Shown here: positions 1 through 40,542 of the stretch, in pieces
How the letters are laid out: each line of letters opens with the position of its first letter
Position numbering within the stretch: the first letter of the stretch is position 1
Source of the DNA: a virus
UHGV virus genome: UHGV-0192375
Reading direction: 5' to 3' (one strand)
Length of the DNA: 40,542 nucleotides
The notes under the pieces: generated by a model
Told to the model about the DNA's origin: nothing
The model's database searches: none
What the model saw: only the letters and a program-made list of their open reading frames with translations
Made by a program: the position numbers and the translations under genes

Positions 1-185
1 ATTTTTCGACTATGCGGCGGCAATCACTCAGATTTGGTTTGCGAGTGCCATTTTCATAGTTCGAGATGCGCGATTGGCGCCACCCAAACATCAACGCCAA
101 TTGCTCTTGTGTTAGTCCGAGAGATTGTCTCTCACTCGCTATATTGTTCATATTTGACCTCGTGCTTATCGATGGACGGAATTAA

Positions 186-257: not shown

Positions 258-638
258 ATGAATACAAATGAACGAATTGCTGCGCGGCTTAAACAAGCCA
301 GAGAACAAAAGGGACTGTCTCAGAAGGCACTCGCAGAGCTGTGTGGGTGGGCTCAATCTCGGATTGGCAATTATGAATCGGCTAGCAGAGCTATTGGTAT
401 TGATGATGCGATCGCTCTGGCAAAAGCTCTACGAATACCACCGGCAGAGCTAATATTTGGGCCCGAATCAACTCAGGAGTGGATAACTCCGCAACATAGA
501 AAATTGATTGATTTGTTTGATCAGCTGCCTGAAGCCGAGCAAGAAAGGATGATCGATTTGTTTCAGGTTCGATTGAAAGAAATTGATGACTATGTGGAAA
601 AGTATCTGCGTGGTCGTTTTAAATCTTCTGAAGACTGA
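258..638 (+). CDS. XRE-family helix-turn-helix transcriptional regulator, probably the prophage A immunity repressor (126 aa, no S24 peptidase domain)
   Basis: N-terminal HTH_XRE signature (LKQAREQKGLSQKALAELCGWAQSRIGNYE); position and strand match a cI-like gene upstream of the pL-exo-xis-int operon; operators upstream. Confidence 0.75.
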   Translation: MNTNERIAARLKQAREQKGLSQKALAELCGWAQSRIGNYESASRAIGIDDAIALAKALRIPPAELIFGPESTQEWITPQHRKLIDLFDQLPEAEQERMIDLFQVRLKEIDDYVEKYLRGRFKSSED

Positions 639-5925: not shown

Positions 5926-6073
5926 AAAAAATTGAATATTTTCAAGGCTCTGAAAACATCACGCCTTCTGAATAAGAAGGTGAGCGAGATCGACAATTAA
6001 TCATTATAAATCAAAACATTAAGCCGCATTTTTTAGCTTAAAACCATTGCTAATAAACGTTTTCCAAAAACTA

Positions 6074-6104
6074 CCAAACTCAAGCACTTACGCTTGAGTT
6101 TTGG
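6074..6104. other. Near-perfect inverted repeat CCAAACTCAAGC-ACTTAC-GCTTGAGTTTTGG in an AT-rich intergenic region (possible bidirectional terminator or att-associated structure)
   Basis: 12/13-bp arms with a 6-nt loop. Confidence 0.4.
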
Positions 6105-6138
6105 AGAACGGTTTTCGTAGATTCTAGCCCTCAAAATG

Positions 6139-6199
6139 AATAACCCCAATAACCCCAAAAGGGTTTGACTCTCCTCTGAGAAGGGGTTATTATAACCCC
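6139..6199 (+). promoter_or_regulatory. hicAB promoter (TTGACT 6165-6170, 17-nt spacer, TATTAT 6188-6193) embedded in AATAACCCC direct repeats (6139-6156) and a 17-bp near-palindrome GGGGTTATTATAACCCC (6183-6199) overlapping the -10
   Basis: Near-consensus sigma70 hexamers with optimal spacing about 30 nt upstream of the RBS; the palindrome is a likely HicB (RHH) operator. Confidence 0.6.
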
Positions 6200-6225
6200 A
6201 TCAAGACAACACAGAGAGCCGGAGG

Positions 6226-6405
6226 ATGGATAGCAGGAATGCAATAGCAATGATAGAAGCCGATGGGTGGTATCTGGTGAGAGTTAAAGGCAGTCATCAC
6301 CAGTTCAAACACCCAACGAAAAAGGGGCTGGTAACGGTAAAGCATCCACAGAAAGACATACCGTTACCAACACTGAAAAGCATCAAAAAACAGGCGGGGC
6401 TCTAA
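6226..6405 (+). CDS. hicA: HicA family mRNA-interferase toxin (59 aa)
   Basis: GGAGG RBS; MDSRNAIAMIEADGWYLVRVKGSHHQFKHP... shows the HicA fold signature (G-S-H-H); absent from the supplied ORF track because <60 aa. Confidence 0.85.
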   Translation: MDSRNAIAMIEADGWYLVRVKGSHHQFKHPTKKGLVTVKHPQKDIPLPTLKSIKKQAGL

Positions 6406-6426
6406 GCCCCCCTACTGGAGGTTTAC

Positions 6427-6837
6427 ATGTTGTACCCTGTTGCTATTGATAAAGGCGATTCATCCTTCGGCGTTCGCGTACCTGATATTCCTGGCTGCTT
6501 CTCTGGCGGTGATGATTATCAGGACGCGATTGAAAGCGTACGTGAAGCGATCGAAGCACATATTGAGTTGCTGGTTGAAGATGGCGAGGCCGTGCCCGAA
6601 GCAACGACCATCGAAAACTGGCTTTCCGATCCTGAATATGCCGGTGTGGTATGGGCCCTGGTTGATGTGGATATAACGCGCCTGATGGGGAAAGCGGAAA
6701 AAATCAATGTTACACTTCCGTCTCTGTTGATCCGTCGTATCGATCAGTTCGTGGCCGCGCATCCAGAATACGGCAGTCGGTCTGGCTTCCTGTCCCGCGT
6801 CGCAGCAGATAAAGTTGTCGGACTACAAAAACGATAA
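6427..6837 (+). CDS. hicB: HicB family antitoxin with C-terminal ribbon-helix-helix DNA-binding domain
   Basis: N-terminal HicB-like fold (MLYPVAIDKGDSSFGVRVPDIPGCFSGGDDYQDAIESVREAIEAHIE) and C-terminal RHH (INVTLPSLLIRRIDQFV); starts 22 nt after hicA. Confidence 0.85.
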   Translation: MLYPVAIDKGDSSFGVRVPDIPGCFSGGDDYQDAIESVREAIEAHIELLVEDGEAVPEATTIENWLSDPEYAGVVWALVDVDITRLMGKAEKINVTLPSLLIRRIDQFVAAHPEYGSRSGFLSRVAADKVVGLQKR

Positions 6838-6860
6838 GCCTCGAAAGAGGCTTTTGATTT
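6837..6860 (+). terminator. Rho-independent terminator after hicB
   Basis: AGCCTC-GAAA-GAGGCT stem followed by TTTGATTT. Confidence 0.7.
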
Positions 6861-6950
6861 GGTGCCAGCGTTACTGATAAGTTAGCATAGAGCAATTACT
6901 ACGTACTGGCGAAAGCGCCGAAATGCGCGCAAATTATAAGGATTTACACA

Positions 6951-7817
6951 ATGATTTATGACTGCTTTCTCTATTACGATGAAGATATGTTGTTAGACAT
7001 TCGTCTACACACTTTGGCTAATGTTGTAGATAAGTTTGTTATTGTTGAATCAAAGTTCACTTTTACGGGTCGCCCAAAACCACTCAATTTCAATATTGAG
7101 AAATTCAAGGCATTTGCCGATAAAATCATTTATGTTGTAAACGACACTGAACCGACGAAATTACCAGGAACAAAATACAGTCCTGATTATGAAGTTGACC
7201 CATGGGAAGTGGAAGCGAACCATCGTAATAGTATTATGCAAGGTCTGGTAGATGCAAAGCCTGACGATATAATAATTGTTTCTGACGTTGATGAAATCTT
7301 CAAACCAGAAGCGATTAAAAAAATAAACCCGCGTCATTTGTGCACTACCATCCATCAAGATTTCTATAACTATCAGTTCAACATGCAAGTGTTCAACAAA
7401 GATGGTTCTCCGCGCAAGTGTACACTTCCAAGAGCAACAACATACAAAAACCTGTTGGATTTTTTTGACGGTGAACCTGAGACCTTCAGGAATGTCAAGC
7501 GTAATCGTTTATTTAAAAAATGGTCGTGGTTCAAATGGAATTGGTTTAAGTTCAATAATAAAGTTATTGATAATGGTGGTTGGCATTTCTCGTGGGTGAT
7601 GACACCTGAACGTATTTCTGAAAAGATGTCTACTATCTCGCACCAAGAATATAATACGCCTGATTTCAATAACCCAGATCACATTTTGAAAGTGTTAGAG
7701 AACGCAGAAGATATCTGGGGGCGAGATAGAAAACTAGTCAAGCAAGAACTTAAAAAGCCCGAATTCCCGGATTATCTAGTCGACAATAAAGAAAAATTTA
7801 AAATGTTTGTCATTTAA
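6951..7817 (+). CDS. Glycosyltransferase family 17 (GnT-III-like) protein, AT-rich moron (288 aa)
   Basis: MIYDCFLYYDEDMLLDIRL...VDKFVIVESKFTFTGRPKPL N-terminus and DVDE motif are typical of bacterial Glyco_transf_17 members; GC content is much lower than the flanks; the stop overlaps convergently with the tail-fibre assembly gene. Confidence 0.7.
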   Translation: MIYDCFLYYDEDMLLDIRLHTLANVVDKFVIVESKFTFTGRPKPLNFNIEKFKAFADKIIYVVNDTEPTKLPGTKYSPDYEVDPWEVEANHRNSIMQGLVDAKPDDIIIVSDVDEIFKPEAIKKINPRHLCTTIHQDFYNYQFNMQVFNKDGSPRKCTLPRATTYKNLLDFFDGEPETFRNVKRNRLFKKWSWFKWNWFKFNNKVIDNGGWHFSWVMTPERISEKMSTISHQEYNTPDFNNPDHILKVLENAEDIWGRDRKLVKQELKKPEFPDYLVDNKEKFKMFVI

Positions 7818-8331: not shown

Positions 8332-10449
8332 TTAATCTCCAACATTGACCCAGGCATTTGTTTGTTTATTTAAATACTGTAATTGACGATAGTAGACACC
8401 TAGCTTTCGGCCATCACTTCTGTTTTCCATATTCACCCCTGTGAGAACGCATCCAGCAGGTGATTCCCAGTTTCCAAACCAGGCATCTGTCGGATTTCGA
8501 ACCTGTTGACCGCCTCGGCGTAGGCCATTTACCACACCATAACGCGCATCACTCTGTGCTTTGGTATAAGCTTCACCCGCAGGGGTGTAACTCCCTTTCG
8601 GCTGAAAACGCCCGTCACTTTCCGACTTCGTGTATGCCTGACCAGCAGGGGTGTAACTCCCCTTAGGCTGAAAACGTCCGTCACTTTCAGCTTTGGTGTA
8701 TGCGCCTGTTTTTGGCATATATCCCGCATCTGATTGTGCTTTGGTGTAATAACGGTTATCAAAATTGGCATAGCTGCCCGGATTAACCTGACCCGGCGCG
8801 TTAAAGTTGCCATTAGTGTCCCATTTAAAATTAACCTCTGATCCGCCACTGCCTTTCATGTGCAGATGCCATGAAAGTTCGGTTCCCGCGACCAGAGACC
8901 CAAACGAAAAAGCCCAGGAGTTTTTACTCGCGATTGTCGCCTGTTGCTTGATAACCGGGTGGTATTCGCTCTCGCCGGTTGTTGAATATGAATTAAAAAA
9001 TGGTGCTTTCGTTTTATACTGTTCTACCCACGCAAACGCCCCGCTATAACCTGCTGTAATTTCTTTAGAGGCATAGACCGTATTACCGACGGTAAGTGGC
9101 GTTTCAGATTGAAGTGCTCCTGTTTCAAGGCTTACACGCAATGGTCGAAGCGCGTTGTAGGCTCCGTAAGAGTCTCCCTTATTGGTCAGCATGAGATACA
9201 GGTTGCTGCCGTCATTTCGCCAGAATGAGCCGTAGTCACCATAGGCAATGCGGAAATTGTTTGCGATGGTACTCTGAATTTCTGCATCAGCCTTGAGTAC
9301 GCCACTCATGGTGTCGCCGCTTTTATTCACGGCACCAATATCAGCCGGGGACGGTTTATTGACGGAATCATATCGTTTGGCCCAGGCAGTCCATGCGCCC
9401 GTTGAATACTGGCTGCGAGTGTAGGCACGAGAACTGTTATAAACCAGATAAACTTGTGTCACGCCCGCATTTTTGTAAACCAGCAGCGTTCCGGCGTTAT
9501 TTTCTGGATAGTGCCTCGCGGCTGAAGTATTGGCATTTATTGGCTGAAAATAAATACCCGGCGTTTTTAACGTATCCAGATCCTCGGTCGAAAGCCCGAT
9601 AGCCTGGTCGTTGAAGATATCCTGAGACGTTACGCTGGTATCGTCTGTCAGTGCGTGACCATTTATCTTACGCCCAGACGGTACACGCCCATTAGCATTA
9701 TCATTAGCTGCTTTGACAGCTTTCGGCGTAGCCGCCAGCGATTCACTGTCACTGTCAGTTGCGCTACTGAGCTGGACAATCCCCTTTTGTGCTGTGGTGG
9801 CGTTCTGAGCAGTATATTTCCCTTTTGCAAGATCATATGCATCTTTAACTGCCTTTGGTGTGGCCGCCAGCCCCTCCGACTTACTGTCGGTCGCATTACT
9901 GAGCTGCACCAGCCCCTTACGTAATGTAGTCGCATCGACGACGTCTATCGCTTCCCGCGCGCTTTTTTGTGCACTTGGGCCATTCTCAGCGATCTCCCCG
10001 AGATTTCGGTCGAGCCGCAGAAAAAGACCATCGCCCGTAGCCACTTTTAATTCAACTGCCGCCGTCTCTGATACCGCAAGTCGGTATTGTAGATTTACAC
10101 TGACACCGTTTTCAGGCTTTTCAATGGCGGCACAATTCGCAACAGAATACAGTTCGCCAGCATCTGTCAGCAGGCCAACTTCCCTGACTACGAATCCACC
10201 AACGTTAACCGGAAGGACCAGCTGAGCAATAAACTGGTTCGCCTGATCCGGAGAAATCTGTAGTGCAGAAATTGCGCTGCGATAGACCTCACGCACCAGC
10301 TTCGTCTGCGCAGGAGCCGGTTTAACGGACTGCCCGTTCCCGTCCCCCACAACAAAATCTTTGATGATGACGGGCTTCCCGGTTGCAGAGGATTGCGTCT
10401 CCAGCTCCTTGCCCCGGTTTGTCAGAATGCTGTAATACTTCTCAGCCAT
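8332..10449 (-). CDS. Tail fibre protein (P2 gpH-like) with tandem C-terminal repeats
   Basis: N-terminal gpH-like attachment region, repeated ...KGIVQLSSATDS...ATPKAVK collar motifs, and repeated SDGRFQPKGSYTPAG units. Confidence 0.85.
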   Translation of the reverse strand: MAEKYYSILTNRGKELETQSSATGKPVIIKDFVVGDGNGQSVKPAPAQTKLVREVYRSAISALQISPDQANQFIAQLVLPVNVGGFVVREVGLLTDAGELYSVANCAAIEKPENGVSVNLQYRLAVSETAAVELKVATGDGLFLRLDRNLGEIAENGPSAQKSAREAIDVVDATTLRKGLVQLSNATDSKSEGLAATPKAVKDAYDLAKGKYTAQNATTAQKGIVQLSSATDSDSESLAATPKAVKAANDNANGRVPSGRKINGHALTDDTSVTSQDIFNDQAIGLSTEDLDTLKTPGIYFQPINANTSAARHYPENNAGTLLVYKNAGVTQVYLVYNSSRAYTRSQYSTGAWTAWAKRYDSVNKPSPADIGAVNKSGDTMSGVLKADAEIQSTIANNFRIAYGDYGSFWRNDGSNLYLMLTNKGDSYGAYNALRPLRVSLETGALQSETPLTVGNTVYASKEITAGYSGAFAWVEQYKTKAPFFNSYSTTGESEYHPVIKQQATIASKNSWAFSFGSLVAGTELSWHLHMKGSGGSEVNFKWDTNGNFNAPGQVNPGSYANFDNRYYTKAQSDAGYMPKTGAYTKAESDGRFQPKGSYTPAGQAYTKSESDGRFQPKGSYTPAGEAYTKAQSDARYGVVNGLRRGGQQVRNPTDAWFGNWESPAGCVLTGVNMENRSDGRKLGVYYRQLQYLNKQTNAWVNVGD
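8555..8760 (-). repeat. About 2.5 tandem copies of a 66-bp repeat inside the tail fibre gene (22-aa units YTKAESDGRFQPKGSYTPAGxA)
   Basis: AGGGGTGTAACTCC recurs at 8581 and 8647 with flanks conserved. Confidence 0.8.
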
Positions 10450-10451
10450 GG

Positions 10452-11003
10452 TTAAACTCCTGCCTCAATAACAACGTCAATCCAGGCGGTAACAGCGCCG
10501 CCGGCATAATAAGTTCCCTTCGCACCCAGATCGGCGATCACATCGATAGTGGTCAACAGGCTGCGGAGGTTTTTGGCTTTATCGACCTGGCGCCGTATGC
10601 GCTGGTAAAGCGCTTCGTCAACAGCTTGTAAGCTGTAAACCTCCACGCGGAAGGTGTAGGGATCCTTGCGCGGTGTATCCTCCCACCACTCAATCACAGT
10701 GGTCGGGAGGCTGACGGCGCTCAGCGACCGCCTGACCGCCCCGGCGGTGCCCCGATGCTGATGGACATAAGCGGCATCCCTGATCACCTGCCTTTTTTCT
10801 TCCTCGGTCCAGGCCTCCTCCCATGAATCCACCGCGAATTCCCAGGCCAGCCATGGCAGCAAATGTGCGGGACAAGTATCAGGATTTTTCACCTTACGTA
10901 CCATGTCAGTATCCAGCGCCGTGATCAGCTCTGTGCTTGTCTGTTCCTGCGCCCGTTCCGGTTGAATAGCTGAAGGCGGAAGCAGAGATCGAAATTTATC
11001 CAC
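10452..11003 (-). CDS. Baseplate wedge protein, P2 gpI-like
   Basis: LLPPS...PDTCPAHLLPWLAWEFAVDSWEEAW motif block typical of gpI. Confidence 0.85.
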   Translation of the reverse strand: MDKFRSLLPPSAIQPERAQEQTSTELITALDTDMVRKVKNPDTCPAHLLPWLAWEFAVDSWEEAWTEEEKRQVIRDAAYVHQHRGTAGAVRRSLSAVSLPTTVIEWWEDTPRKDPYTFRVEVYSLQAVDEALYQRIRRQVDKAKNLRSLLTTIDVIADLGAKGTYYAGGAVTAWIDVVIEAGV

Positions 11004-11907
11004 TCACTCCTCCTTTACGGGTGACGTTTATCGCGCTGCACCACGGGGCCTGTCCTGCTGCCGCTTCCAGATCAGCCGTCGGGCTGAGCAACTTAACTCT
11101 GGATACGCCGGGCTGCTGAAGTGCTGAGTAAATAGAGGAAAGCGGTACGATGGCATTAATGCGATGGGAAAGCTGTGTGTAGCTCGTCAGCGTACTTATC
11201 GCGTTTTCCAGTACCGTCTGTGCATCCGGACCGTCTGGTATTTCAAGTTCAGCCTTTACGGTATAGCTGGCGATACTGGCACTCTTCACACTGACAAAAT
11301 CGGTGAGCGGCCTGACTTCATCCGCGCTCAGTTTATTCATCACTTTTTCGATCAGGATATCCCCGGCCTCGCCGTTGCCGGTTCGCGAGAGCACGTATAC
11401 ATCCACCTCGCCGGGCCGGTTATGGGTTTCAGGCCCGTAGGCGTCCGCATCCAGCACATCGTTATCCGCTGATTTGGCATGAAAGCGATAAGCGTTACGC
11501 GCGCCGGCCGTATTCAGCTGCGCCCACGAAAGCTGTATACGTTCCCGGAAAGCGTCGTCGTCTTCATAAACAGGGTCGACAGGGGGAACCGCATCCGGAT
11601 CGCCGGGATTAATCACCAGACGGGAAACATTAAAGGCCGCGCCCAGCTGGTCGAGATCGGCCTCTCTGGCACTGGCAAGGAAAACAGCCCTTACAGCGTC
11701 ATTAACGCGCTGGAACGCCAGAGTGAGCTGGTAGGCGTTGATTTCACCCTGTTTATACGCCGGGTCAGATTCCACCAGCGCATCAAATTCCGGATCCAGT
11801 TCGCGCAGGCGCGCCAGCCAGCGGGTAAAAATGTCAGCGGCATCCGGTACCACGATGGCATCCGGCACCGCCAGGGCGGACAGGTTAATTACGTCATAGC
11901 TGCTTGC
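10996..11907 (-). CDS. Baseplate assembly protein J (P2 gpJ-like); start reassigned to the internal Met (MASSYDVINLSALAVPD)
   Basis: Collinear similarity to P2 gpJ begins at this Met; the ORF-track start (12012) would overlap gpW by about 120 nt. Confidence 0.8.
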   Translation of the reverse strand, partial: ASSYDVINLSALAVPDAIVVPDAADIFTRWLARLRELDPEFDALVESDPAYKQGEINAYQLTLAFQRVNDAVRAVFLASAREADLDQLGAAFNVSRLVINPGDPDAVPPVDPVYEDDDAFRERIQLSWAQLNTAGARNAYRFHAKSADNDVLDADAYGPETHNRPGEVDVYVLSRTGNGEAGDILIEKVMNKLSADEVRPLTDFVSVKSASIASYTVKAELEIPDGPDAQTVLENAISTLTSYTQLSHRINAIVPLSSIYSALQQPGVSRVKLLSPTADLEAAAGQAPWCSAINVTRKGGVSG

Positions 11908-12247
11908 CATAAATCGGTATGCCTCCGGTGCTGACAGGAAGATTGTTCTCTTTGTTAATCCCTTCGATATCCACCACACACCCCGTTTTGTCAGCCGGGA
12001 AAGAAACGACAACGCGCGTGACCTTAAGCCGGGGTTCCCAGCGTGCCAGCGCCGAGGCGGTCGCGGCGATGATGCGAAGCCTGGTCAGGTCATCACGAGG
12101 GTTATCAACCAGCGAAAACAGGTCACTGCCATAATCACGGATCAGTACACGGCTGCCGACGGGCGTGGAGAGAATATCGCTGACGGACTGGCGCAGATGA
12201 TCGCTACCGGACAGGTGTTTCCCGGTCCGGCTGTTTACACCGTTCAT
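11894..12247 (-). CDS. Baseplate assembly protein W (gp25-like)
   Basis: Size, position and the GSRVLIRDYGSDL... motif of the GPW/gp25 family. Confidence 0.8.
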   Translation of the reverse strand: MNGVNSRTGKHLSGSDHLRQSVSDILSTPVGSRVLIRDYGSDLFSLVDNPRDDLTRLRIIAATASALARWEPRLKVTRVVVSFPADKTGCVVDIEGINKENNLPVSTGGIPIYGKQL

Positions 12248-12283
12248 AGTATTTTCCGTATCTGTTTGTCGGATGGCTGAGAG

Positions 12284-30078: not shown

Positions 30079-30252
30079 TTAGCCCCCTCTTCTTGCTGTG
30101 GATCCTCTCAGAAAAATTGAGGGGAAAGAAAAAAGGCCACCGGATGGCAGCCTTCTGAAAGATATTTGAATTGGTAAATCAGGTGAGATCGACGATATGA
30201 CAGGGGTACTGGTGCAATGCACCTTCGCGAATACCCCTGTCGTATCGCCGGA

Positions 30253-30279
30253 TAACAAAAAACCCCGGCAGGCGGGGTT
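30253..30279 (-). terminator. tR'-like intrinsic terminator downstream of the Q gene (target of late antitermination)
   Basis: Minus strand CCCCGCCTGCCGGGG hairpin followed by TTTTTTGTT; lies between Q and the lysis genes. Confidence 0.7.
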
Positions 30280-30416
30280 TCAAGTTTTTTCAAATTGTCG
30301 CTTTACATCGCTGCCATCGTGGCGCAGCTCTGCCAAGCATGAATAGATTATCTGATTTTCTGGCCCGTTTTCAATGTTTCATCGCACAAATAGCACTTTT
30401 TGCTAAACCGTGACGC

Positions 30417-31025
30417 TCATGAAATTTCTTTCAGAGCATTCCGCGCTGACAAAAAAACCTTTGCCCTGAATATTTCCAGGCACCAGCGCACCCGCTTTCT
30501 GGCTTCCGAATCTGTCAACCACGGTGCCAGATGCTGCAAATCTCTGGTGATGTCCGCTATTTTCTTACGCGTGGTGTAATACTGACGTCCAACGATATAA
30601 ACAGGATCTTTCAAATCAAACGCCAGAAGAATAACGTTCTCCATGAATTTAGCGTCATCACTGCTCATAGCCTGGTCAATTACACTGACCGGGGATTCAG
30701 GCCAGAGTATTGAGCGCGCGCGCCTCATTGCCTGCTCGCCACGGTAACCTTCCTCCCTTGCCTGGTTCAAAGCCGCGGTAAAACGCTCCAGTGCTTTATC
30801 AGACCAATTCTTGCCTCTGAGCACATTCCAGCACGAATGACCACACGGTTTCGCTGGGGCCGTACCGCCGCGAACAAATTCGCCCCATACAGTCAGAAGC
30901 GATTTAATCCACCCGGACTGAATATCATTAAGGAGAATACTTTTACCCAGCCAGCTCTTACGTGGGGCCATTGCTGCTTTACCCAGCGCTTCAATATGAT
31001 TACGGCGTTGACGTGGTGTCATCAT
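30417..31025 (-). CDS. Late-gene antiterminator Q-like protein
   Basis: Position between the nin-like region/DUF968 gene and the lysis cassette; Cys/His cluster; AAGGA RBS. Confidence 0.55.
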   Translation of the reverse strand: MMTPRQRRNHIEALGKAAMAPRKSWLGKSILLNDIQSGWIKSLLTVWGEFVRGGTAPAKPCGHSCWNVLRGKNWSDKALERFTAALNQAREEGYRGEQAMRRARSILWPESPVSVIDQAMSSDDAKFMENVILLAFDLKDPVYIVGRQYYTTRKKIADITRDLQHLAPWLTDSEARKRVRWCLEIFRAKVFLSARNALKEIS

Positions 31026-31034
31026 CTTTAATCC

Positions 31035-32054
31035 TTACGCCAGAACGCCGAGCGCGTAGGCCCGGTCCAGCACTTTAATAATCATCTCCGGCTGCGAGCC
31101 ATATTTACGCTCGAATGCCCGCCGGTCGTTATGCAGTTCGTTATGATGTTTACGGCAGAGTGGGATCGCGAAAATGTCATGGGCTTTGGTTGCCATGCCA
31201 CCCTGCCCCCATCCAATTAAGTGGTGTGGGTCATCTGACTGCTGCTGGCAGCATTCGCATGGTTGAGTTTTCACCCAATCAAGATATTCGCGACACTCCC
31301 AGCGCAGACGTTTAGGGCGACGCATGAAGGACTGCGGAGGAGCAGGATCCACCAGCACACCCACCAGCGGTTCGGCCATGATGTCAGGTACGTCAACAGC
31401 GGCGACTTTCTCAGCGAGAATGCTGGTGGCCGGTATCCCTGGCGTTATATCACTTTCGCGCCCAATCTTGCTGTCCTCCGGCAGGCGAAGCGCTTCACGG
31501 GCCGCAAATTCGGGAAGTGCTTCAGTAACGCCGGCACGAACTGCCCACCAGCTGAGTTCTGCGAGCGAGATCTCCCTGGCCTTGTCCATGCCAAGAGAAA
31601 TACGGACAGAATCGAGAACAAATGCGATTACATTCCGGCACGCCAGCTCAGCCAGTGCCTCAGTGTGTTGATCACGTAACTCATTGTCGCAGTAGCCGCA
31701 TAGCAGAATCGAGCCGGGTTCATGATGCATTACGGTCATCTCATGATAGTGATAATCGCCATGAGGGTTCTGGCACTTGCCCCCACCGTAGTGGAGCAAC
31801 CAGTAATCAAGCCCACGTATACCGCCCGCAGCACGAATGACATTCTCATTCAGAAAGAAAGTTCTTAGTTGCTCGTTTTCAGCTAACGGTTGCCGTGCAT
31901 CAGGAACGCGGCCTGTCTGGTATCCCGACATGCTTGCAGGCTGACGTTCGATCAAGACTCTTCCGCTCCCAAACAAACTCAGCAGCTCCTTGCCTGGCTT
32001 CAGCAACACAACACCTAATTCACGAACAATCACCGGATGTAACAGAGCGCGCAT
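31035..32054 (-). CDS. DUF968-family prophage protein (YdfU-like) with C-terminal HNH/zinc-finger-like motif
   Basis: C-terminal CECC...HHLIGW...AIPLCRKHHNELH block; sits beside the Q gene as ydfU does in the E. coli Qin prophage. Confidence 0.65.
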   Translation of the reverse strand: MRALLHPVIVRELGVVLLKPGKELLSLFGSGRVLIERQPASMSGYQTGRVPDARQPLAENEQLRTFFLNENVIRAAGGIRGLDYWLLHYGGGKCQNPHGDYHYHEMTVMHHEPGSILLCGYCDNELRDQHTEALAELACRNVIAFVLDSVRISLGMDKAREISLAELSWWAVRAGVTEALPEFAAREALRLPEDSKIGRESDITPGIPATSILAEKVAAVDVPDIMAEPLVGVLVDPAPPQSFMRRPKRLRWECREYLDWVKTQPCECCQQQSDDPHHLIGWGQGGMATKAHDIFAIPLCRKHHNELHNDRRAFERKYGSQPEMIIKVLDRAYALGVLA

Positions 32055-32061
32055 CCCTATT

Positions 32062-32262
32062 TTACCTCCGCCCGCGTGAACGCATGTTTTGCTGTGCTCT
32101 CTGCGATGAGACGAACTGAGGAAGATATGCGCTGACTAACCAGAACCGCGGATCTATATCGAGGCTTTTCTCGACGGTTACGCCATTGGATTCGTAGCGA
32201 GCTACCAGCTCATTAGCTTCTTCCGTTGTCAGTCCGGTGTGGGTGAACCAGCTTTTTTTCAT
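32062..32262 (-). CDS. Hypothetical protein (66 aa)
   Basis: ORF tightly packed in the operon; start overlaps the stop of the upstream gene. Confidence 0.45.
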   Translation of the reverse strand: MKKSWFTHTGLTTEEANELVARYESNGVTVEKSLDIDPRFWLVSAYLPQFVSSQRAQQNMRSRGRR

Positions 32263-32660
32263 TGGATGGCCCCGGATAATTTCAGATATTCAATTGCACG
32301 AGCCCGGGCGCCGGGTTCGTTGTTGAGCAGCTCACGCAGTAACTGAACGGCCATAACCGGTTCTTTACGCCCGTTAATGCGGATCCCGCGAGAGGTTCCT
32401 GGTGCCAGTGTGATAATGCGTTTTCGCTCTAATGCACGGAGGTGGGTCAGCGCTGCGTTAGGTGAAGCAACACCAAGCAGATTCGCCAGTTCCTGACAGG
32501 TTGGAGGGTAGCCATGCGTATTCACAAAATCCACGAGCAGATCCAACACTTCCTGTTGTCTCGGGGTAAGTTGTGTCTCAGGGGATATAGTTAAGCCGGC
32601 GCAGCCTGAAAGCTCGCCAGCAGGAATTGAGTTCAATTTTGTCTTGGTTGTTTGCGCCAT
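32259..32660 (-). CDS. LexA-like protein consisting only of a LexA N-terminal winged-helix DNA-binding domain (133 aa); no S24 peptidase/dimerisation domain and no Ala-Gly cleavage site
   Basis: aa 31-100 LTPRQQEVLDLLVDFVNTHGYPPTCQELANLLGVASPNAALTHLRALERKRIITLAPGTSRGIRI align closely with E. coli LexA 4-70 ([64 protein letters not shown]); GGAGA RBS. Confidence 0.8.
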   Translation of the reverse strand: MAQTTKTKLNSIPAGELSGCAGLTISPETQLTPRQQEVLDLLVDFVNTHGYPPTCQELANLLGVASPNAALTHLRALERKRIITLAPGTSRGIRINGRKEPVMAVQLLRELLNNEPGARARAIEYLKLSGAIQ

Positions 32661-32704
32661 GGTTTTTCTCCAGTGGCGCAGCAGGTGCCGGTTGTTCAGG
32701 CCAG

Positions 32705-32938
32705 CTACGAGAGTATACCAGAGGGCGGAGAAGGACGGTAGCCAGCCTTCTCCAGCATTTTGGTGAAGAGGGACGGAGAGCCAACTATCTCATCTTCTCT
32801 GAGAGGCATGAACGAAAACATGTCCCCTTTGCGATACATCAGGGCGCGGTCGCACCGAGGGAAGTTTTCAAAGTAAGCTATAACCGCCCTGTCCGCACAA
32901 CGAATTAACGCAAAACCGGTATCCGGTAGATCCTCCAT
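32705..32938 (-). CDS. Hypothetical protein (77 aa)
   Basis: ORF between recA and the LexA-like gene. Confidence 0.45.
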   Translation of the reverse strand: MEDLPDTGFALIRCADRAVIAYFENFPRCDRALMYRKGDMFSFMPLREDEIVGSPSLFTKMLEKAGYRPSPPSGILS

Positions 32939-32976
32939 GCCCCCTCCTCTTAATCTTTCTCTCTACCAGTTCCGCA

Positions 32977-34086
32977 TTACTCGTTTTCAAAGGTGTCAGT
33001 CACTTCTAAGGTTTCCTCGACTGAAGCGCTCTGAATTGCGGTTAAATCAGGATCGTTGTTAAGTGCTTTTTCCCGGATCTGCCCCTCAATTTCAGCAGCT
33101 ATATCGGGATGCTCGTTAAGCCAGGTGACGGCGTTATTACGGCCATTACCAAGCTTTTCACCAAGGTAGTCGTACCATGCACCTGTTTTATTTATCAATT
33201 TAAGCTTCACGCCAAGCTCAAGAATTTCATCGGAACGAGAAATCCCTTGACCGAACATGAGACGGTAGGATGCCTGTTTGAATGGTGGTGAAACTTTATT
33301 TTTGACGACTTTTATCGTGGTGTCTTTACCGGTGATCTGGTCACCTTCTTTGATGGTTCGTGATCTGACGTCGAGGCGAACGGAGGCGTAAAATTTAAGG
33401 GCGTTTCCGCCGGTAGTAGTTTCAGGATTACCGAACATGACCCCTATTTTCATGCGTAACTGGTTGATGAAAATAACGATGGTTTTTGTTTTACTGACCT
33501 CTCCCGCAAGTTTGCGCATGGCTTGCCCCATCATTCGCGCCTGAAGTCCCATCTGCGCATCCCCTATTTCACCTTCAAGCTCAGACTTAGGCACCAGGGC
33601 AGCCACGGAATCTACGACAATCAGGCCAACGGCTCCGGAACGAACCAGCGCATCTGTAATTTCAAGTGCCTGTTCGCCGGTGTCAGGCTGGGATATGAGC
33701 AAATTATCAATATCCACACCTAACTGCTGTGCATATCGGGGATCAAGAGCATGCTCAGCATCGATGAAAGCACACTGTCGGCCTTCACGCTGTGCGCTGG
33801 CAATCGCAGAAAGCGCTACCGTAGTTTTACCAGATGACTCTGGGCCGTAAATTTCAGAGATACGCCCAACCGGAAAACCACCACCCAGGGCAATATCCAA
33901 CCCGAGGGAACCAGTTGGAACCATTTCAACATTTAAATGTGAACCGTCACCAAGACGCATAATGGCTCCCTTGCCAAAGGCTTTTTCGATCTGTCCCATT
34001 GCAGCTGTGAGCGCCTTTTCTTTTTCTTCCCTTGTTGATGGTTTTGTTTTGTCGGACAGAACAGGTTTTTTCTTATCAACGGCCAT
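32977..34086 (-). CDS. recA: RecA recombinase paralog encoded by the prophage
   Basis: Full-length collinear similarity to E. coli RecA, including Walker [11 protein letters not shown]1/L2 loops and C-terminal acidic tail; GAGGAG RBS. Confidence 0.95.
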
Positions 34087-34115
34087 AGCAGAATCTCCTC
34101 ATCTCACACGAATAG

Positions 34116-34150
34116 CTGTATGAATATACATACTGGATATAAAAACAGTA
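34116..34150 (-). promoter_or_regulatory. SOS (LexA) box(es) in the recA promoter: TACTGTTTTTATATCCAGTA (minus strand, 34131-34150) and the adjacent weaker ATGTATATTCATACAG (34116-34131)
   Basis: CTG-N10-CAG core with an AT-rich spacer, 17/20 match to the TACTGTATATATATACAGTA consensus; sits between a TTGATC -35-like hexamer and the RBS, as in the E. coli recA promoter. Confidence 0.7.
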
Positions 34151-34237
34151 CACCCAAAAATAAAAATGATCAACCCGCATAAAGCACTTTTTGCCAAAGC
34201 CAGTTATATGTTTCTCATGGATTTTTTTTCGTACAGA

Positions 34238-34263
34238 CATAAAAAACCCGCCTGTGGCGGGTT
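34238..34263 (-). terminator. Intrinsic terminator downstream of the C5-methyltransferase gene, upstream of the recA promoter
   Basis: Minus strand AACCCGCCACAGGCGGGTT hairpin followed by TTTTTTAT. Confidence 0.65.
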
Positions 34264-34307
34264 CTTAGTAAAGTTGTTTTGAGGATTAAAAACTAACAGC
34301 ATATGCT

Positions 34308-36191
34308 TCACGCAGCGCGTACTTTTGGCATGCATAATTCTGGCAGATTTGCCCTCACCAGCGCCTCAGCGAATGGCGGAGGAACTGCATTTCCACAACG
34401 TGCCACCTGCTTATCCTTTGCGTACTTCACGCCCCGGAAATCCTGGTCGATGATGTACCACTCCGGGAAGCCCTGCGCCCGGTATAGCTCATGCGGTTGC
34501 AGCATGCGCATGCCAATATCAACGATGCGATAAACTACCCCATCCAGCGTCACCAGGCCAGTGCTGTCCGGGCCACAATATTCGCGCAGGAACTCCAGCA
34601 CCTGCTGCGCGCGCTGCTCGTCATACCCGTCTACGGCCAGCATGGTTTTCACCTCTCCCACATGCGTGCCACCAGCGGTAATGGTCGGCATTGGCTGGTC
34701 GGTGCGCTGTCCGTCCCGACAGGTTCCACGCAGCTTCACCAGATGAGAGGTTACCGCGGCATGATGATCGACGGTTGTCACAGAGTGCATCGGTTCGTCC
34801 ATGTCCACGCCAGCGCCCTGGTAATTCCCGCCGTAGTGCTTCGCCAGGAACGCGCTCACAGTGGCGAATTTATTGCCGCCTGCCGTAACGGTACCCAGCG
34901 GGTTATCCAGTTGCAGCACGCGCGGCTCCTGCCCCAGACGTTCGCCATAGCCCATCTGAATGAGCGTGGGCATAACCAGCTGCGATTTACCGCCGCCACC
35001 AGCGGTGATTGTCGCACTTGGTTCATCTGCCCGATGTCCTACGCTGGCGCCGAACTGACGACCAACAAAAGGTGTAAGCGCGGCTTCTACCATGCCCAGT
35101 GCATGCCCGTTGCCGCCCGGACGCTTCGATGTACCTGCGGTGATCGTCGGTACCGGTTCAGTTACTTCCTGCCCGGTAGCACCCGTGCGGAACTTCGTCA
35201 GGTGCGGTACTGCGATTGCGTAGCCGTGTTTTTTTGTGATGGTCTGCAAGGGCTCATTCAGGCTCTGGCCTCTGAAACAGTCATAACCCGAACGGGTGCT
35301 GGTGTGGTTACACTTCACGATGAACGGCGTCGGATTGTCCAGGACGAAACGCTGAATTCCCCGGGCGATTCGCTTAAGCGTGTTTTCTGCCAGCGGCTTT
35401 TTACGGCCAAAAATTGACGGCGCGGCAATTGACCAATCGATGCATTCAGCAGCTGTTCGCCATGGTGCCAGCTTACCAGCCTGAACTGCTGGAGATTTCG
35501 GATCCGCGTGGGTTACTTCCGGCCAGGTCACAGGCACGCCGTCGCAGCGCATCACCATGAAGAACCGCTTCCGGATGGTCGGTGCACCAAAGTCGCAGGC
35601 GCGCAGTTCGCGGTAATCGACTGCATAACCCAGCCCGGCCACCAGCTGCTGCGCCAGCATGCCGTCGGCGGCAATGCCCAGGAACTCGCAGCACTCCTCC
35701 AGCGCCGGATGCCCGGCGGGGATACCTCCGGACAACATGCCGCAGAACGCTTCAAAGGTTTCGCCTGCGCGTTCCGGGTCCGGGCGCTGCCCACCGTCAG
35801 CCGATACGATTAGCGGACCCCACGTTTTGAACTCCTCCACGTTCTCCAGCATCATCACGCGCGGTCGCACCGCCAGCGCCCAACGAATGACGATCCACGC
35901 CAGACCGCGAATCTCTTTCTCCACCGGCTTCGAGCCTTTGGCTTTCGAGAAGTGGCGACAGTCCGGGGAGAACCACGCCAGCCCCACCGGGCGGCCAGCG
36001 GTCGCCAGCTGAGGGTTTACGTCAAACACGGATTCGCAATAGTGCAGCGTATCGGGGTGGTTGGTGGTGTGCATCGCAACGGCGTTCGGGTCGTGGTTGA
36101 TCGCAATATCCACACTGCGCCCGATAGCCATTTCAATGCCTGTACTCGCCCCGCCGCCGCCGGCAAAGTTATCGACAATAATTTCTCTCAC
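34308..36191 (-). CDS. DNA (cytosine-5)-methyltransferase, orphan, with an extended variable region carrying four repeated TITAG(G) target-recognition-like modules (putatively multispecific)
   Basis: Motif I VDNFAGGGGAS, IV SPDCRHFSKAKG, VI MLENVEEF, VIII PTIRKRF, IX/X GNAVPPPF; about 390 aa between VIII and IX containing PVPTITAGT, PSATITAGGG, PLGTVTAGGN, PMPTITAGGT repeats; no adjacent restriction endonuclease. Confidence 0.85.
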   Translation of the reverse strand: MREIIVDNFAGGGGASTGIEMAIGRSVDIAINHDPNAVAMHTTNHPDTLHYCESVFDVNPQLATAGRPVGLAWFSPDCRHFSKAKGSKPVEKEIRGLAWIVIRWALAVRPRVMMLENVEEFKTWGPLIVSADGGQRPDPERAGETFEAFCGMLSGGIPAGHPALEECCEFLGIAADGMLAQQLVAGLGYAVDYRELRACDFGAPTIRKRFFMVMRCDGVPVTWPEVTHADPKSPAVQAGKLAPWRTAAECIDWSIAAPSIFGRKKPLAENTLKRIARGIQRFVLDNPTPFIVKCNHTSTRSGYDCFRGQSLNEPLQTITKKHGYAIAVPHLTKFRTGATGQEVTEPVPTITAGTSKRPGGNGHALGMVEAALTPFVGRQFGASVGHRADEPSATITAGGGGKSQLVMPTLIQMGYGERLGQEPRVLQLDNPLGTVTAGGNKFATVSAFLAKHYGGNYQGAGVDMDEPMHSVTTVDHHAAVTSHLVKLRGTCRDGQRTDQPMPTITAGGTHVGEVKTMLAVDGYDEQRAQQVLEFLREYCGPDSTGLVTLDGVVYRIVDIGMRMLQPHELYRAQGFPEWYIIDQDFRGVKYAKDKQVARCGNAVPPPFAEALVRANLPELCMPKVRAA

Positions 36192-36940
36192 GCGTATTCC
36201 TCCATGGCGGCGGCCAGCGAACGGGCAGCAACGACAATTGACGGTACCGGCAACTTCTCAAGCCACATCCGGTTGATGTGATGTTTCAGGCGACGCTGGT
36301 GGTGTGCCGGGAGATCCCCGGCGTTTTCAATCTGGCTGTATACCATTCCGACTTCGTCAGGCCAGACGGTATCCTGCACGTCCACCAGCAGGAGGTTTTC
36401 CAGCTCGATAATTCGTTTCGTGGCGTACTGCAATTGCGGGTCAAAGTTGTCCTGTGGCTCACCGTCTTTAACGAAGGATATCCAGTGGGTTTTGTCATTT
36501 TTCCCGGTACGCTGACCAATGATTGGTTTTACATCCGTCAGCGCCAGAACCTGGCTAACTGGAATCTGAGTTTCGTTCCATTTGAAAATGAGTACACCGT
36601 GTGGCCGCAATACTCGGAATGCCTCTTTGAAACCGGCGCGCAGGTCAGAACGCCACGTTTTTTTGTTCAATCGCCCATATTTTTTACCCATCCAGGCAGC
36701 TTCACCAACTCGTTCAAGATGAGGAGGGTCGAAAACCACTACGGGGAAGGTGTTATCAGCAAACGGCAGCGCGCGAAAGTCAGCAATGAAATCAGGACTG
36801 ATAACCAGACGGCGGCCATCGCAAAGCTCATGCTCCTCACTGCGAATGTCGGTAAAGACAGCGCGAGAGTCGCATTTGTTTAACCAGAACATGCGGGAAC
36901 CGCAGCACATATCGAGTATTATTTTCTCGGACATGTTCAC
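36188..36940 (-). CDS. DNA N6-adenine (or N4-cytosine) methyltransferase, orphan
   Basis: Motif I ILDMCCGS followed by motif IV VVFDPPH; 250 aa; overlaps the start of the C5-MTase. Confidence 0.8.
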   Translation of the reverse strand: MNMSEKIILDMCCGSRMFWLNKCDSRAVFTDIRSEEHELCDGRRLVISPDFIADFRALPFADNTFPVVVFDPPHLERVGEAAWMGKKYGRLNKKTWRSDLRAGFKEAFRVLRPHGVLIFKWNETQIPVSQVLALTDVKPIIGQRTGKNDKTHWISFVKDGEPQDNFDPQLQYATKRIIELENLLLVDVQDTVWPDEVGMVYSQIENAGDLPAHHQRRLKHHINRMWLEKLPVPSIVVAARSLAAAMEEYA

Positions 36941-38353: not shown

Positions 38354-38370
38354 TGGTCAAATCTCGATTA
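38351..38370 (-). repeat. Copy 4 of conserved linker TAATCGAGATTTGACCAATG (stop of P-like gene + 14 nt + start of PerC-like gene)
   Basis: 19/20 identical to copies 1 and 3. Confidence 0.8.
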
Positions 38371-39039
38371 GTTGGTTAAACCTGCCGCTTTGCGGCGCTT
38401 GTACTCTTCCATCAGCAGCTGTGCCGGAGTTGGCCCTGCCGGATGCTGCGGTGCAGCAAGCTGGCGACGGATTGGTGGAACCGACAACCCGTTGCTCACG
38501 TGCTTCGTCCATTTGGTCAATAACTTCTCAGCGAGTTTCTTCAGTTCCCCCTCAGTCATCTGGCGCTCTACGCCAGTCCTGCGCATTTCGATGCAGATGT
38601 GGTACAAAACCGGCTGCGGCCACGGGTATTTATCACTTCCCGAAAAACGATATGACTCGCTACGCCAACGGCGGTATTCAGTCATCACCCGATCCGATGT
38701 AAGCCCGAACGGGTTAGCCCCACTCTCAGAAACCAGCGATACGAACTCAGCCAGATCAGGAGGCCATGTGTTACCTACCGCGCAGCGCTCCATGCACTGC
38801 TGGCAAACCAGTTTAATCTGGGCCTCAGTCATCGAACCTATCTGAGCTATCCAGAGGGCCGTAGGCTCTGCCCCATTCTTCTGTGTCCATCGGTTCGAGA
38901 AGATTTCCCCCATCACCTGCCATAGCCGCCATGCCGTTTCCGTCGCCATCAAGTCCGTTCCGGCGTCGCCACTCTGCGTGTGCTGATTGAATTTGCTGAA
39001 CAGCTCGGGATGCTGTTGGTTCTGATCGAACTGCTGCAT
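38368..39039 (-). CDS. Replication-module protein in the P position (putative helicase-loader/replication protein P-like; function unverified)
   Basis: Strong GGAGG RBS; directly follows, and overlaps by about 215 nt out of frame, the O-like initiator gene. Confidence 0.5.
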
Positions 39040-39883
39040 TGTCGGTACCTCCGGATTGTGGTTTTGTCTGGACCTTTGCGCGATCCAGATGGCGGGCCAA
39101 TTTTTGCTCCCACTGGATTTGATGAAAAACTTTCCCTTCGGCTTGCCAGTAAGCGATGAAACTACTCAGTTCCGCTTCAAAATTTATTCCCGCCTTCAAC
39201 GGCATCCCCCACAAAACCGCCTGACGTTCAAAATCGACTGATGGTTTCCAGGCCTGATGCATCTGGAATTTCCCGAATGATTGCTGTGGTCCAAATCCGA
39301 TACCGGGTTGGTTCGGATAATCTGGAATAGCAGGTTCGACCAGTTCGCTATGTGTGGGGTTTAGATCTTTATGGTTCCTTGGTAGATTCCGTGTCCCGTT
39401 TTTGGGACTGTTTAAAGGGAAAAACGGTACTCTTTGGTTAAAATTCGAACTATTAACAATCCCGATTTTGGTATTGTTATCCTCGTTAACAGTCCCGTTA
39501 ATGGTACTGTTCGCATTAACAGTTCCGTTATCGGGATCATTTCGTTGAACAGTCCCCTTTTTGGTACCGTTTAAACGGTACCGATTTCGGGCTTGTTCTG
39601 CATCGGGGATGCTTTCTTCAACGCCCACCAGCCTGTAAACAGGTATTTGTTTAGTCCTGCCACGCCGTTCCCCGGTGTCCACAACAAGGCCGATTTCCTG
39701 TAGATGCTGCAATCCTGCAAGCACAGTCTTTCTGTCCATCTCAGTAGCCTCTGCAAGCGCAGCGACAGATGGATAAGCGCATAAGTCAGCACCGCACATA
39801 TCAGCCAGCCAGGTTAATATCGCCTTGCTGGAAGATTTTCCGGTTTTAACTTTTTTGGCCCACCGCATTGCATCAATGCTCAT
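38825..39883 (-). CDS. Replication initiator (lambda O-like N-terminal HTH + DnaT-like C-terminal domain) containing the origin iterons
   Basis: [12 protein letters not shown]...[11 protein letters not shown]-terminus typical of phage replication initiators; C-terminal DnaT-like segment; iterons within the coding sequence; GGAGG RBS. Confidence 0.8.
39391..39570. repeat. Origin-like iterons: four direct repeats of TTAACAGTCCCGTT with 29-33 bp spacing, an inverted copy (GGGACTGTT) and a flanking AT-rich stretch inside the O-like gene
   Basis: Copies at about 39453, 39486, 39517 and 39546; they encode the N-rich NGTVN repeats of the initiator; analogous to lambda ori within O. Confidence 0.7.
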
Positions 39884-40474: not shown

Positions 40475-40542
40475 GCCTCACTCCTTATGTGAGTTAGGTG
40501 GAAAAATGCTATCGAGGGTACATTGAGACCCGAGCTCATTAA

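Follow-up and report, generated by a model that had tools for sequence, protein, structure and literature searches.

A recA-led operon behind a LexA-box promoter in an Enterobacter phage resembles the antirepressor switches of Gifsy prophages

Why would a temperate phage carry its own recA, together with a gene for a truncated LexA, behind a promoter that the LexA protein of its host would be expected to repress? The question is raised by UHGV virus genome UHGV-0192375, a stretch of 40,542 nucleotides (nt) that is referred to below, at its full length, as the window. Its minus strand carries, in order of transcription, a terminator, a promoter with SOS (LexA) boxes, recA, orf77, lexA', orf66, a DUF968 gene and the late antiterminator gene Q. 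The phage is temperate and its host is Enterobacter. We propose, with a probability of about 0.72, that this module is a DNA-damage induction switch, namely an antirepressor operon of the Gifsy type, repressed by host LexA, that has picked up recA and a gene encoding only a LexA DNA-binding domain (DBD). An earlier, sequence-only reading of the locus had suggested that it bears on prophage induction, and the likeness to Gifsy-type antirepressor operons supports this suggestion.

We first consider the regulatory region. In box 1, the SOS box that overlaps the promoter, the letters TACTGT form the -10 element and the left arm of the box at once. Box 1 is the sole zero-mismatch match to TACTGT-N8-CCAGTA in the window and agrees with the consensus TACTGT(AT)4ACAGTA at 17 of 20 positions, with one mismatch in the ACAG half-site (CCAG). 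When up to two mismatches were allowed, TACTGT-N8-CCAGTA was matched seven times in the window against 1.29 expected; the sites at 8375 and 11274 have two mismatches each and lie inside structural genes. The putative sigma-70-type promoter was read by eye and is absent from the output of a simple consensus scan. Ahead of the recA start codon, the ATG at 34086, lies a GAGGAG ribosome-binding site. The terminator was recognized by folding and was likewise missed by a simple terminator scan; counterpart hairpins are visible at its position in most relatives. It is predicted to insulate the operon from the methyltransferase genes upstream, where the C5 cytosine methyltransferase gene ends at 34308.

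Relatives of the module were found on 13 IMG/VR contigs, with RecA proteins 70-94% identical, and 10 of the 13 keep the order recA-orf77-lexA'. All 13 have an SOS box 61-71 nt before the recA start, and the CTG...CAG of box 1 is invariant in all relatives. In an alignment of 10 diverged relatives (alignment A2), the TTGAT of the -35 element, TACTGT, and the TGT...CAG of the degenerate box 2 are also invariant; at the position of box 2, L017 and L022 have a full CTGT-N8-ACAG. Because the boxes, promoter and gene order are conserved while the flanking intergenic DNA diverges, chance can be rejected as an explanation. The sequence-only reading had described a LexA-box promoter and a terminator ahead of recA and a LexA-DBD-only gene, and every one of these features is present on the minus strand.

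From recA to Q, the intergenic gaps are 38, 44, -4, 7 and 9 nt. The same orientation and close packing reported earlier therefore hold, but the "overlapping stops and starts" do not: lexA' and orf66 (ATGA) are the only overlapping pair, and the other gaps measure 7-44 nt. The sole terminator-like match within the operon is a weak 5-bp stem in orf77 with a poor T tract. With genes packed this tightly and no convincing internal terminator, co-transcription from recA through Q, which had been asserted for the part leading into DUF968 and Q, is plausible as far as the sequence goes. The coordinates of the features are collected in Table 1.

Table 1 Features of the SOS module and of the immunity region in the window.
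Feature	Coordinates	Strand	Description
Intrinsic terminator	34241..34266	-	11-bp GC-rich stem (AAGAACCCGCC/GGCGGGUUUUU) and U tract; -18.3 kcal/mol, z = -2.5
Putative sigma-70-type promoter	34145..34173	-	-35 TTGATC (34168..34173), 17-nt spacer, -10 TACTGT (34145..34150)
SOS (LexA) box 1	34131..34150	-	TACTGTTTTTATATCCAGTA; overlaps the -10 and the expected transcription start
SOS box 2, degenerate	34114..34133	-	GTATGTATATTCATACAGCT; shares 3 nt with box 1
recA	32977..34086	-	369 amino acids (aa); 15-aa Lys-rich N-terminal extension
orf77	32705..32938	-	77 aa; phrog_1813; predicted GfoA-family antirepressor
lexA'	32259..32660	-	133 aa; Pfam LexA_DNA_bind PF01726 6e-22, 77.6 bits; phrog_362
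orf66	32062..32262	-	phrog_1212; conserved backbone gene
DUF968/HNH-like protein	31035..32054	-	Pfam DUF968 1e-69; phrog_96; NinG slot of Gifsy
Q-like late antiterminator	30417..31025	-	phrog_753, 5e-65; last gene of the string
Prophage repressor	258..638	+	126 aa; Pfam HTH_3 3.9e-16, no other domain
cro-like gene	~40478..40542 plus 1..151	-	71 aa; spans the window junction

The closest known arrangement is that of the Gifsy prophages, in which a terminator-like palindrome and, after it, a LexA box lie downstream of the replication genes and before Q (Lemire, Figueroa-Bossi & Bossi 2011, PMC3121763). The Gifsy operon contains dinI, a small antirepressor gene (gfoA, gftA or gfhA) and irsA, and the prophage repressors are inactivated by the antirepressor rather than cleaved (PMC3121763). 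In the Gifsy-1 record, the order is dinI, a 73-aa open reading frame (ORF), DUF1367/irsA, a 66-aa ORF, NinG and Q. The window shares with prophages Gifsy-1, -2 and -3 the position between replication genes and Q (box 1 lies downstream of O/P-like genes at 38368..39883 and upstream of Q), the upstream terminator and the LexA box in the promoter. It also shares the succession of a small ORF, an accessory gene, a 66-aa ORF, a gene in the NinG slot and Q, as well as a short repressor without a cleavage domain and GfoA-like and GfoR-like C-termini. Orf66 is 40% identical to Gifsy-1 STM2620.1n (E = 7e-16) and 51% identical to SPN3UB_61, and occupies the same position after irsA or lexA'. The differences from Gifsy are that recA leads the operon instead of dinI, that a LexA-DBD-only gene lies in the irsA (DUF1367) slot, that DUF968 replaces NinG, that the hosts are Enterobacter and Klebsiella, and that the virion module is myovirus-like.

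Intermediate arrangements were found among the relatives. In two of them (L020 and L021), which lack a second box, the SOS box is followed by recA, dinI, a clear homologue of GftA (68% to Gifsy GftA), IrsA, orf66, NinG and Q, and a third (L022) has recA, dinI, orf77, lexA', orf66, DUF968 and Q. dinI was not found in the window, where the operon begins with recA. Taken with the window clade, this series indicates that recA was inserted downstream of the promoter and ahead of dinI in genuine antirepressor operons, whose antirepressors belong to two unrelated families, and that the window clade and its Klebsiella counterpart have since lost dinI. By position, recA takes or precedes the dinI slot of Gifsy and lexA' takes the irsA slot, which is a cargo position.

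The gene most regularly found behind this promoter is orf77. A search of the phage collection returned orf77 homologues in 14 records only; a homologue stands directly after dinI in Salmonella phage SPN3UB, in E. coli prophage 1344_LBHALD (L001) and in Klebsiella phage Kp4865-4. L001 shares the orf66-DUF968-Q backbone with the window at 92%, and its DUF968 protein is 98% identical. We also scanned for the orf77 family in one genome per species (species representatives), which returned 20 loci. An SOS box lies ahead in 18 of them, and about 15 have the arrangement SOS box-dinI-orf77-(orf66)-DUF968-Q; in three loci the box is directly upstream of orf77, and one locus of this kind is a 1.1-kb fragment. 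lexA' follows orf77 in a single locus, and recA is present in none. As these loci mostly lack recA and lexA' and yet lie behind an SOS box, orf77 appears to be the constant payload of this SOS promoter. Databases label orf77 "hypothetical", and Pfam gave no match for orf77, orf66 or GftA.

Comparison with GfoA was made at the termini. The termini of GfoA and GfoR were deduced from the tagging primers published by Lemire et al. (PMC3121763). The C-terminus of GfoA is RRLGYRVTPPSDI (...LGYRVTPPSDI), whereas members of the orf77 family end in EKAGYRPSPPSDILA or ERAGYRLCPPSDIML and the window protein ends in EKAGYRPSPPSGILS (...AGYRPSPPSGI). At the true C-terminus, 7-9 of 13 residues are identical between the orf77 family and the GfoA peptide. 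The C-terminus of GfoR (EKYMKGRIRTRED) and that of the window repressor (EKYLRGRFKSSED) are identical at 7 of 13 positions, again at true C-termini. The published GfoA primer fragments occur in none of the loci examined.

The repressor itself fits a switch of this kind. The window holds the complete phage genome in circularly permuted form (junction 40542/1), so that the immunity region falls inside it; a chromosomal prophage copy (L007, from the Enterobacter record CP026719.1) aligns unbroken across the window's end and start. Once the permutation is considered, the repressor gene lies ~6.7 kb upstream of recA. No S24 peptidase (autocleavage) domain was found in the repressor with Pfam, and every orf77-bearing phage with a visible immunity region has a helix-turn-helix (HTH) repressor of 126-136 aa without a peptidase domain. 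We compared five repressors (that of the window, L003 806..1192, L013 ~3038..3403, L076 1387..1776 and L079 3767..4177) and found them to be modular, with five HTH types and one conserved C-terminal half (LPE.E..RMID.F..RLKEIDDYVE.YLRGR). This combination of a variable HTH half and a conserved C-terminal half fits an antirepressor that recognizes the conserved half, and it also fits the cross-reactivity reported for GfoA. We infer that Orf77 recognizes the conserved C-terminal half of the repressor. As a separate observation, the HTH halves show little or no relationship between phages, and the L003 repressor differs in its HTH half although the orf77 of that phage is identical to that of the window.

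We propose the following course of events. In the lysogen, host LexA would occupy the two abutting SOS boxes, which cover the -10 and the start site, while the upstream terminator stops read-through. Upon DNA damage, activated host RecA (RecA*) would cause LexA to cleave itself, and the promoter would fire, yielding a transcript that, to judge from the gene packing and the lack of a convincing terminator, could extend from recA through orf77, lexA', orf66 and DUF968 to Q. Orf77 would then bind the short, non-cleavable GfoR-like repressor, probably at its conserved C-terminal half, and lift immunity, as homology, synteny and co-occurrence suggest. Q, at the end of the transcript, may give the late genes a head start. 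Phage RecA might add to the RecA* pool and so sustain an otherwise reversible signal, a function that has been ascribed to the dinI slot; alternatively or in addition, it may supply a recombinase to a phage in which no single-strand annealing protein was detected. More speculatively, LexA', which is uncleavable and has two helices that could allow dimerization, might re-occupy the SOS boxes later and shut down both the operon and the host SOS regulon. These accessory roles of RecA and LexA' are much less certain than the identity of the module.

Several points weigh against this interpretation. LexA binding, co-transcription and the interaction between Orf77 and the repressor are all deductions. 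The homology of orf77 to GfoA is drawn from synteny and 13 C-terminal residues, the N-terminus of GfoA (MSNSALQ) differs, and similarity between orf77 and GftA was not detectable. The AlphaFold2 (AF2) model of Orf77, with a mean predicted local distance difference test (pLDDT) score of 56, is too poor for a fold search. In Gifsy, deletion of dinI or irsA left induction unchanged (PMC3121763), so that the switch may not depend on what those slots hold; since it is dispensable there, dinI can be regarded as a usual rather than an essential feature of such operons. LexA' of the window has T in place of E45 in its recognition helix and may for this reason not bind canonical SOS boxes. Finally, positive feedback by RecA and negative feedback by LexA' from one transcript would oppose each other unless they are separated in time.

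Switches of the same logic are known from coliphage 186 (Tum) and phage N15 (AntC), where host LexA represses an antirepressor gene and the SOS response causes the repressor to be inactivated without proteolysis. Tum carries a DinI-like half as a fusion (PMC3121763). Neither protein has a detectable sequence relationship to Orf77, and both differ in genomic position and phage type. The type of system is thus already known from Gifsy, 186 Tum and N15 AntC, and the cargo of recA and a LexA-DBD-only gene is unusual for it. In the literature, we came across no account of an antirepressor operon led by recA, of a function for the enterobacterial LexA-DBD-only family, or of the orf77 family, and searches for a prophage recA or for LexA-DBD-only proteins of enterobacterial phages gave nothing relevant. 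LexA-controlled antirepressor switches govern the induction of many enterobacterial prophages, some of which carry virulence genes, and the present comparison gives a widespread "hypothetical" 77-aa family a testable function.

To assess what recA contributes, we examined its product. The gene is full-length, as had been stated, and its identity to E. coli RecA is 65-67% depending on the alignment, above the earlier estimate of about 60%. Pfam matches were obtained to RecA (PF00154, E = 1.4e-130, 434.9 bits against a cut-off of 27) and RecA_C (PF21096, 75.6 bits). The Walker A residues K72/T73, E96, the Walker B residue D144, Q194 and K248/K250 are identical to those of E. coli RecA, loop L1 is nearly identical, and loop L2 is fully conserved (I195L only), including M202/F203. 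In cryo-electron microscopy structures, the engagement of LexA is determined chiefly by the L2 residues M202/F203 (PMC11787620). With these contacts intact, the phage RecA is likely to be competent as a coprotease; the residues for filament formation and for LexA engagement are all retained in this protein, which we propose adds to RecA*.

Compared with E. coli RecA (PDB 3CMU/2REB), the phage protein thus has the full set of domains, including the acidic C-terminal tail. It differs in a Lys-rich N-terminal insertion of 12-15 aa, which is common to all phage RecA copies found, including that of Hafnia phage yong2, and in being encoded by a prophage gene under an antirepressor promoter. In the subclade of the window, in which dinI is lost, RecA also has a one-residue deletion and the substitutions G229R and R243T; genetics has implicated these positions in repressor recognition. 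Phage RecAs share 65-72% identity with E. coli RecA, and those of different subclades are about equally distant from each other. The phage copies represent long-resident phage lineages and not recent captures.

The module is widespread among prophages of Enterobacter and Klebsiella. A RecA identical to that of the window is encoded in 229 assembly blocks, most of them from Enterobacter hormaechei, where it is annotated as "recombinase RecA" beside a "LexA family protein" and "hypothetical" proteins, and the Klebsiella version of the string (recA-orf77-lexA'-orf67-DUF968-Q) occurs in 264 blocks. This marks the additional "recombinase RecA" annotated on the chromosomes of such genomes as prophage-borne. 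When the phage collection was searched with the 3.9-kb module at the nucleotide level, no match was found; the Q-DUF968-orf66 backbone alone matched one E. coli genome.

The alternative that survives best, though we consider it distinctly less probable than an induction switch, is that recA is an SOS-inducible moron that serves repair in the lysogen, or recombination-dependent replication or genome repair of the phage, with no part in the decision to induce. In Hafnia phage yong2, an N-terminally extended recA (5958..7110) with its own SOS box (TACTGTGTAAATCAACAGTG) stands alone between integrase and tail genes. Relatives of the window have other cargo in this slot of the operon: E. coli 1344_LBHALD has a colicin-like bacteriocin there, and L079 a SIR2 protein. 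The window encodes an exonuclease with RecE-N and Rv2179c-like parts, and none of the single-strand annealing proteins RecT, Bet or Erf was detected in it; the lack of effect of the dinI deletion on Gifsy induction (PMC3121763) points in the same direction. A moron would leave unexplained, however, why recA is repeatedly the first gene of an antirepressor operon, in three operon variants. The moron hypothesis is compatible with a Gifsy-type switch and does not exclude it.

A second set of alternatives concerns LexA'. No PF00717 (S24 peptidase) domain, cleavage site or Ser-Lys dyad was found in it, and we therefore regard it as a LexA-DBD-only protein and not a cleavable LexA, as far as its sequence tells. 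In its AF2 model (pLDDT 77), residues 1-25 are disordered, residues 33-95 form a winged helix, and two confident extra helices (102-112 and 118-128) take the place of the LexA linker and peptidase domain. The winged helix superposes on E. coli LexA (1JHH/3JSO) at 0.8-1.8 Å over 66-70 residues with 51-55% identity, and the LexA DBD was the sole convincing match in the fold search. Whole-chain likeness to the small dimeric winged-helix repressors YtrA-type GntR, MntR and BlaI was dismissed, the root-mean-square deviation (rmsd) being ~6-15 Å. The phrog_362 profile covers positions 2-104 of 106, conserved C-terminal helices included. Genes of this family are common in lambdoid nin regions (SfV orf42, mEp460_046 and Stx2c phages), beside dam and rusA and without recA.

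The closest characterized protein is gp6 of the Bacillus tectivirus GIL01, a truncated LexA that turns on a late promoter by way of a palindrome of its own (Fornelos et al. 2018, PMC6182141). Both proteins are essentially a LexA winged helix without an autocleavage domain and come from phages whose switch depends, or would depend, on host LexA. They differ in that LexA' has a disordered N-terminus of 25 aa and two C-terminal helices that gp6 lacks, and in that the window is a lambdoid genome with Q for late control.

Instead of repressing at SOS boxes, LexA' might, like gp6, activate transcription or regulate from an operator of its own. The residues with which LexA reads the CTGT bases bear on this point in both directions. 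LexA' of the window has L and T for E44 and E45, the T at E45 being a trait of its subclade, and members of the family lie among the delayed-early nin genes of many phages. Yet the family shows no variation at the equivalents of S39, N41, A42, H46 and L47, about half of its members keep E45, and the domain remains close to the DBD of E. coli LexA (the identity given above, at ~1 Å rmsd). In addition, the late genes of this phage have a Q antiterminator, and no candidate alternative operator, palindrome or late-promoter site was found. We regard a gp6-like role as unlikely.

About equally doubtful is a more ambitious form of the switch, in which RecA and LexA' would together override the SOS response of the host in two parts, RecA making the switch decisive by positive feedback and a dimeric LexA' re-closing all SOS boxes, including those of host genes, bacteriocins and rival antirepressor operons. 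If this were so, whichever prophage of a polylysogen fired first would lock the others out. The Listeria phage protein AriS (PMC9043618) offers a conceptual precedent only, being an unrelated phage regulator that damps SOS and controls co-resident phage elements. If recA and the uncleavable LexA DBD do work, some prophages would modulate the SOS signal and not merely read it. This could alter the response of clinical Enterobacter and Klebsiella lysogens to DNA-damaging antibiotics, as well as the competition of prophages within one cell and the recombination capacity of lysogens.

Still less probable, in our view, is the proposal of the sequence-only reading that the phage runs an SOS circuit of its own, built around its RecA, which senses damage, and its truncated LexA, which binds SOS boxes, with the small ORFs being incidental. 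recA and lexA' are conserved under purifying selection, prophages of Enterobacter and Klebsiella keep the pair together behind an SOS box, and the unrelated Hafnia phage yong2 also has an SOS-boxed recA and a LexA-DBD-only gene. However, most such operons have neither recA nor lexA', and all have the small ORF, so that the invariant payload across relatives is orf77, which had been treated as filler. The two supposed partners also occur apart: recA heads operons without lexA' in L020 and L021, and lexA' is found in SfV, mEp460 and Stx2c phages without recA or a nearby SOS box. Nor would such a circuit act "independently of the host", as had been suggested, since host LexA keeps the operon off and switching it on needs host RecA*.

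Selection was assessed from the ratio of nonsynonymous to synonymous divergence (dN/dS). Pairwise values, at synonymous divergences up to saturation, were 0.05-0.10 for recA, 0.04-0.14 for orf77 and 0.10-0.20 for lexA'. Given purifying selection on all three genes and the conservation of box and promoter, they appear to be working genes behind a working regulatory site and not relics. That recA and lexA' are functionless, decaying remnants of captured host genes, for which the truncation of lexA' and nothing else speaks, is refuted by dN/dS of 0.05-0.2 over saturated synonymous divergence, by reading frames that are intact in hundreds of assemblies and by the family-wide profile phrog_362, to which the C-terminal helices of LexA' belong, and is very improbable.

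Several relatives carry further genes in or near the SOS region. In L079, a gene for a 666-aa SIR2_2-domain protein (10264..12264) lies directly after a dinI-orf77-like pair, in the lexA'/irsA slot, and may be a defence gene under SOS control. In L076, an nSTAND1/AAA_16 gene lies between Q and holin. In L001 (8066..10732), an SOS box with dinI and an orf77-like gene is followed by a second SOS box ahead of a colicin-like tRNase bacteriocin and its immunity gene, so the prophage bacteriocin appears to be wired into the same SOS region. The LexA-DBD-only gene of the unrelated temperate Hafnia phage yong2 (L002; 3868..4239, 123 aa, 31% identical) adjoins a 3'-5' exoribonuclease gene. PADLOC matched the module of the window to no defence system.

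Directly upstream of the terminator lie two DNA methyltransferase genes (34308..36940, minus strand) for a C5 cytosine methylase of 627 aa and an enzyme of 250 aa. The C5 methylase has a long insertion between motifs, and its gene is kept beside the SOS operon in many relatives. Downstream of Q, a promoter-like site (30347..30374; TTGAAA-16-GATAAT) is followed by two terminator-like hairpins (30259..30281 and 30131..30156) and then by holin genes, as expected for a Q-dependent late promoter and terminator. The recombination exonuclease mentioned above (1814..4378, plus strand) is an 854-aa protein with an N-terminal Exonuc_VIII (RecE) region and a C-terminal Rv2179c-like 3'-5' exonuclease domain; the version in L079 has 1018 aa. 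Genes for a HicB-like antitoxin and a family-17 glycosyltransferase-like protein (6427..7817, plus strand), between the integrase and a tail-fibre assembly gene, are likely lysogenic-conversion cargo. Rfam and tRNA scans of the entire window gave no matches. In the Enterobacter record CP026719.1, the module is present twice (AVE74527-30 and AVE74573-76), the copies lying ~46 genes apart and one RecA being called at 340 aa instead of 369; this points to related phages in tandem or double lysogeny.

Past the cro-like gene lie a YdaT-like gene and then the O/P-like replication genes. Inside the O/DnaT-like gene, a run of AACAGTYCCGTTA-like iterons (39470..39560), presumably the replication origin, makes a spurious perfect CTGT-N8-ACAG at 39507..39522, and the SOS-like site at 39505..39524 was rejected as an operator because it belongs to this run. 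The iteron stretch is nearly identical in E. coli prophage L001 (13585..13600).

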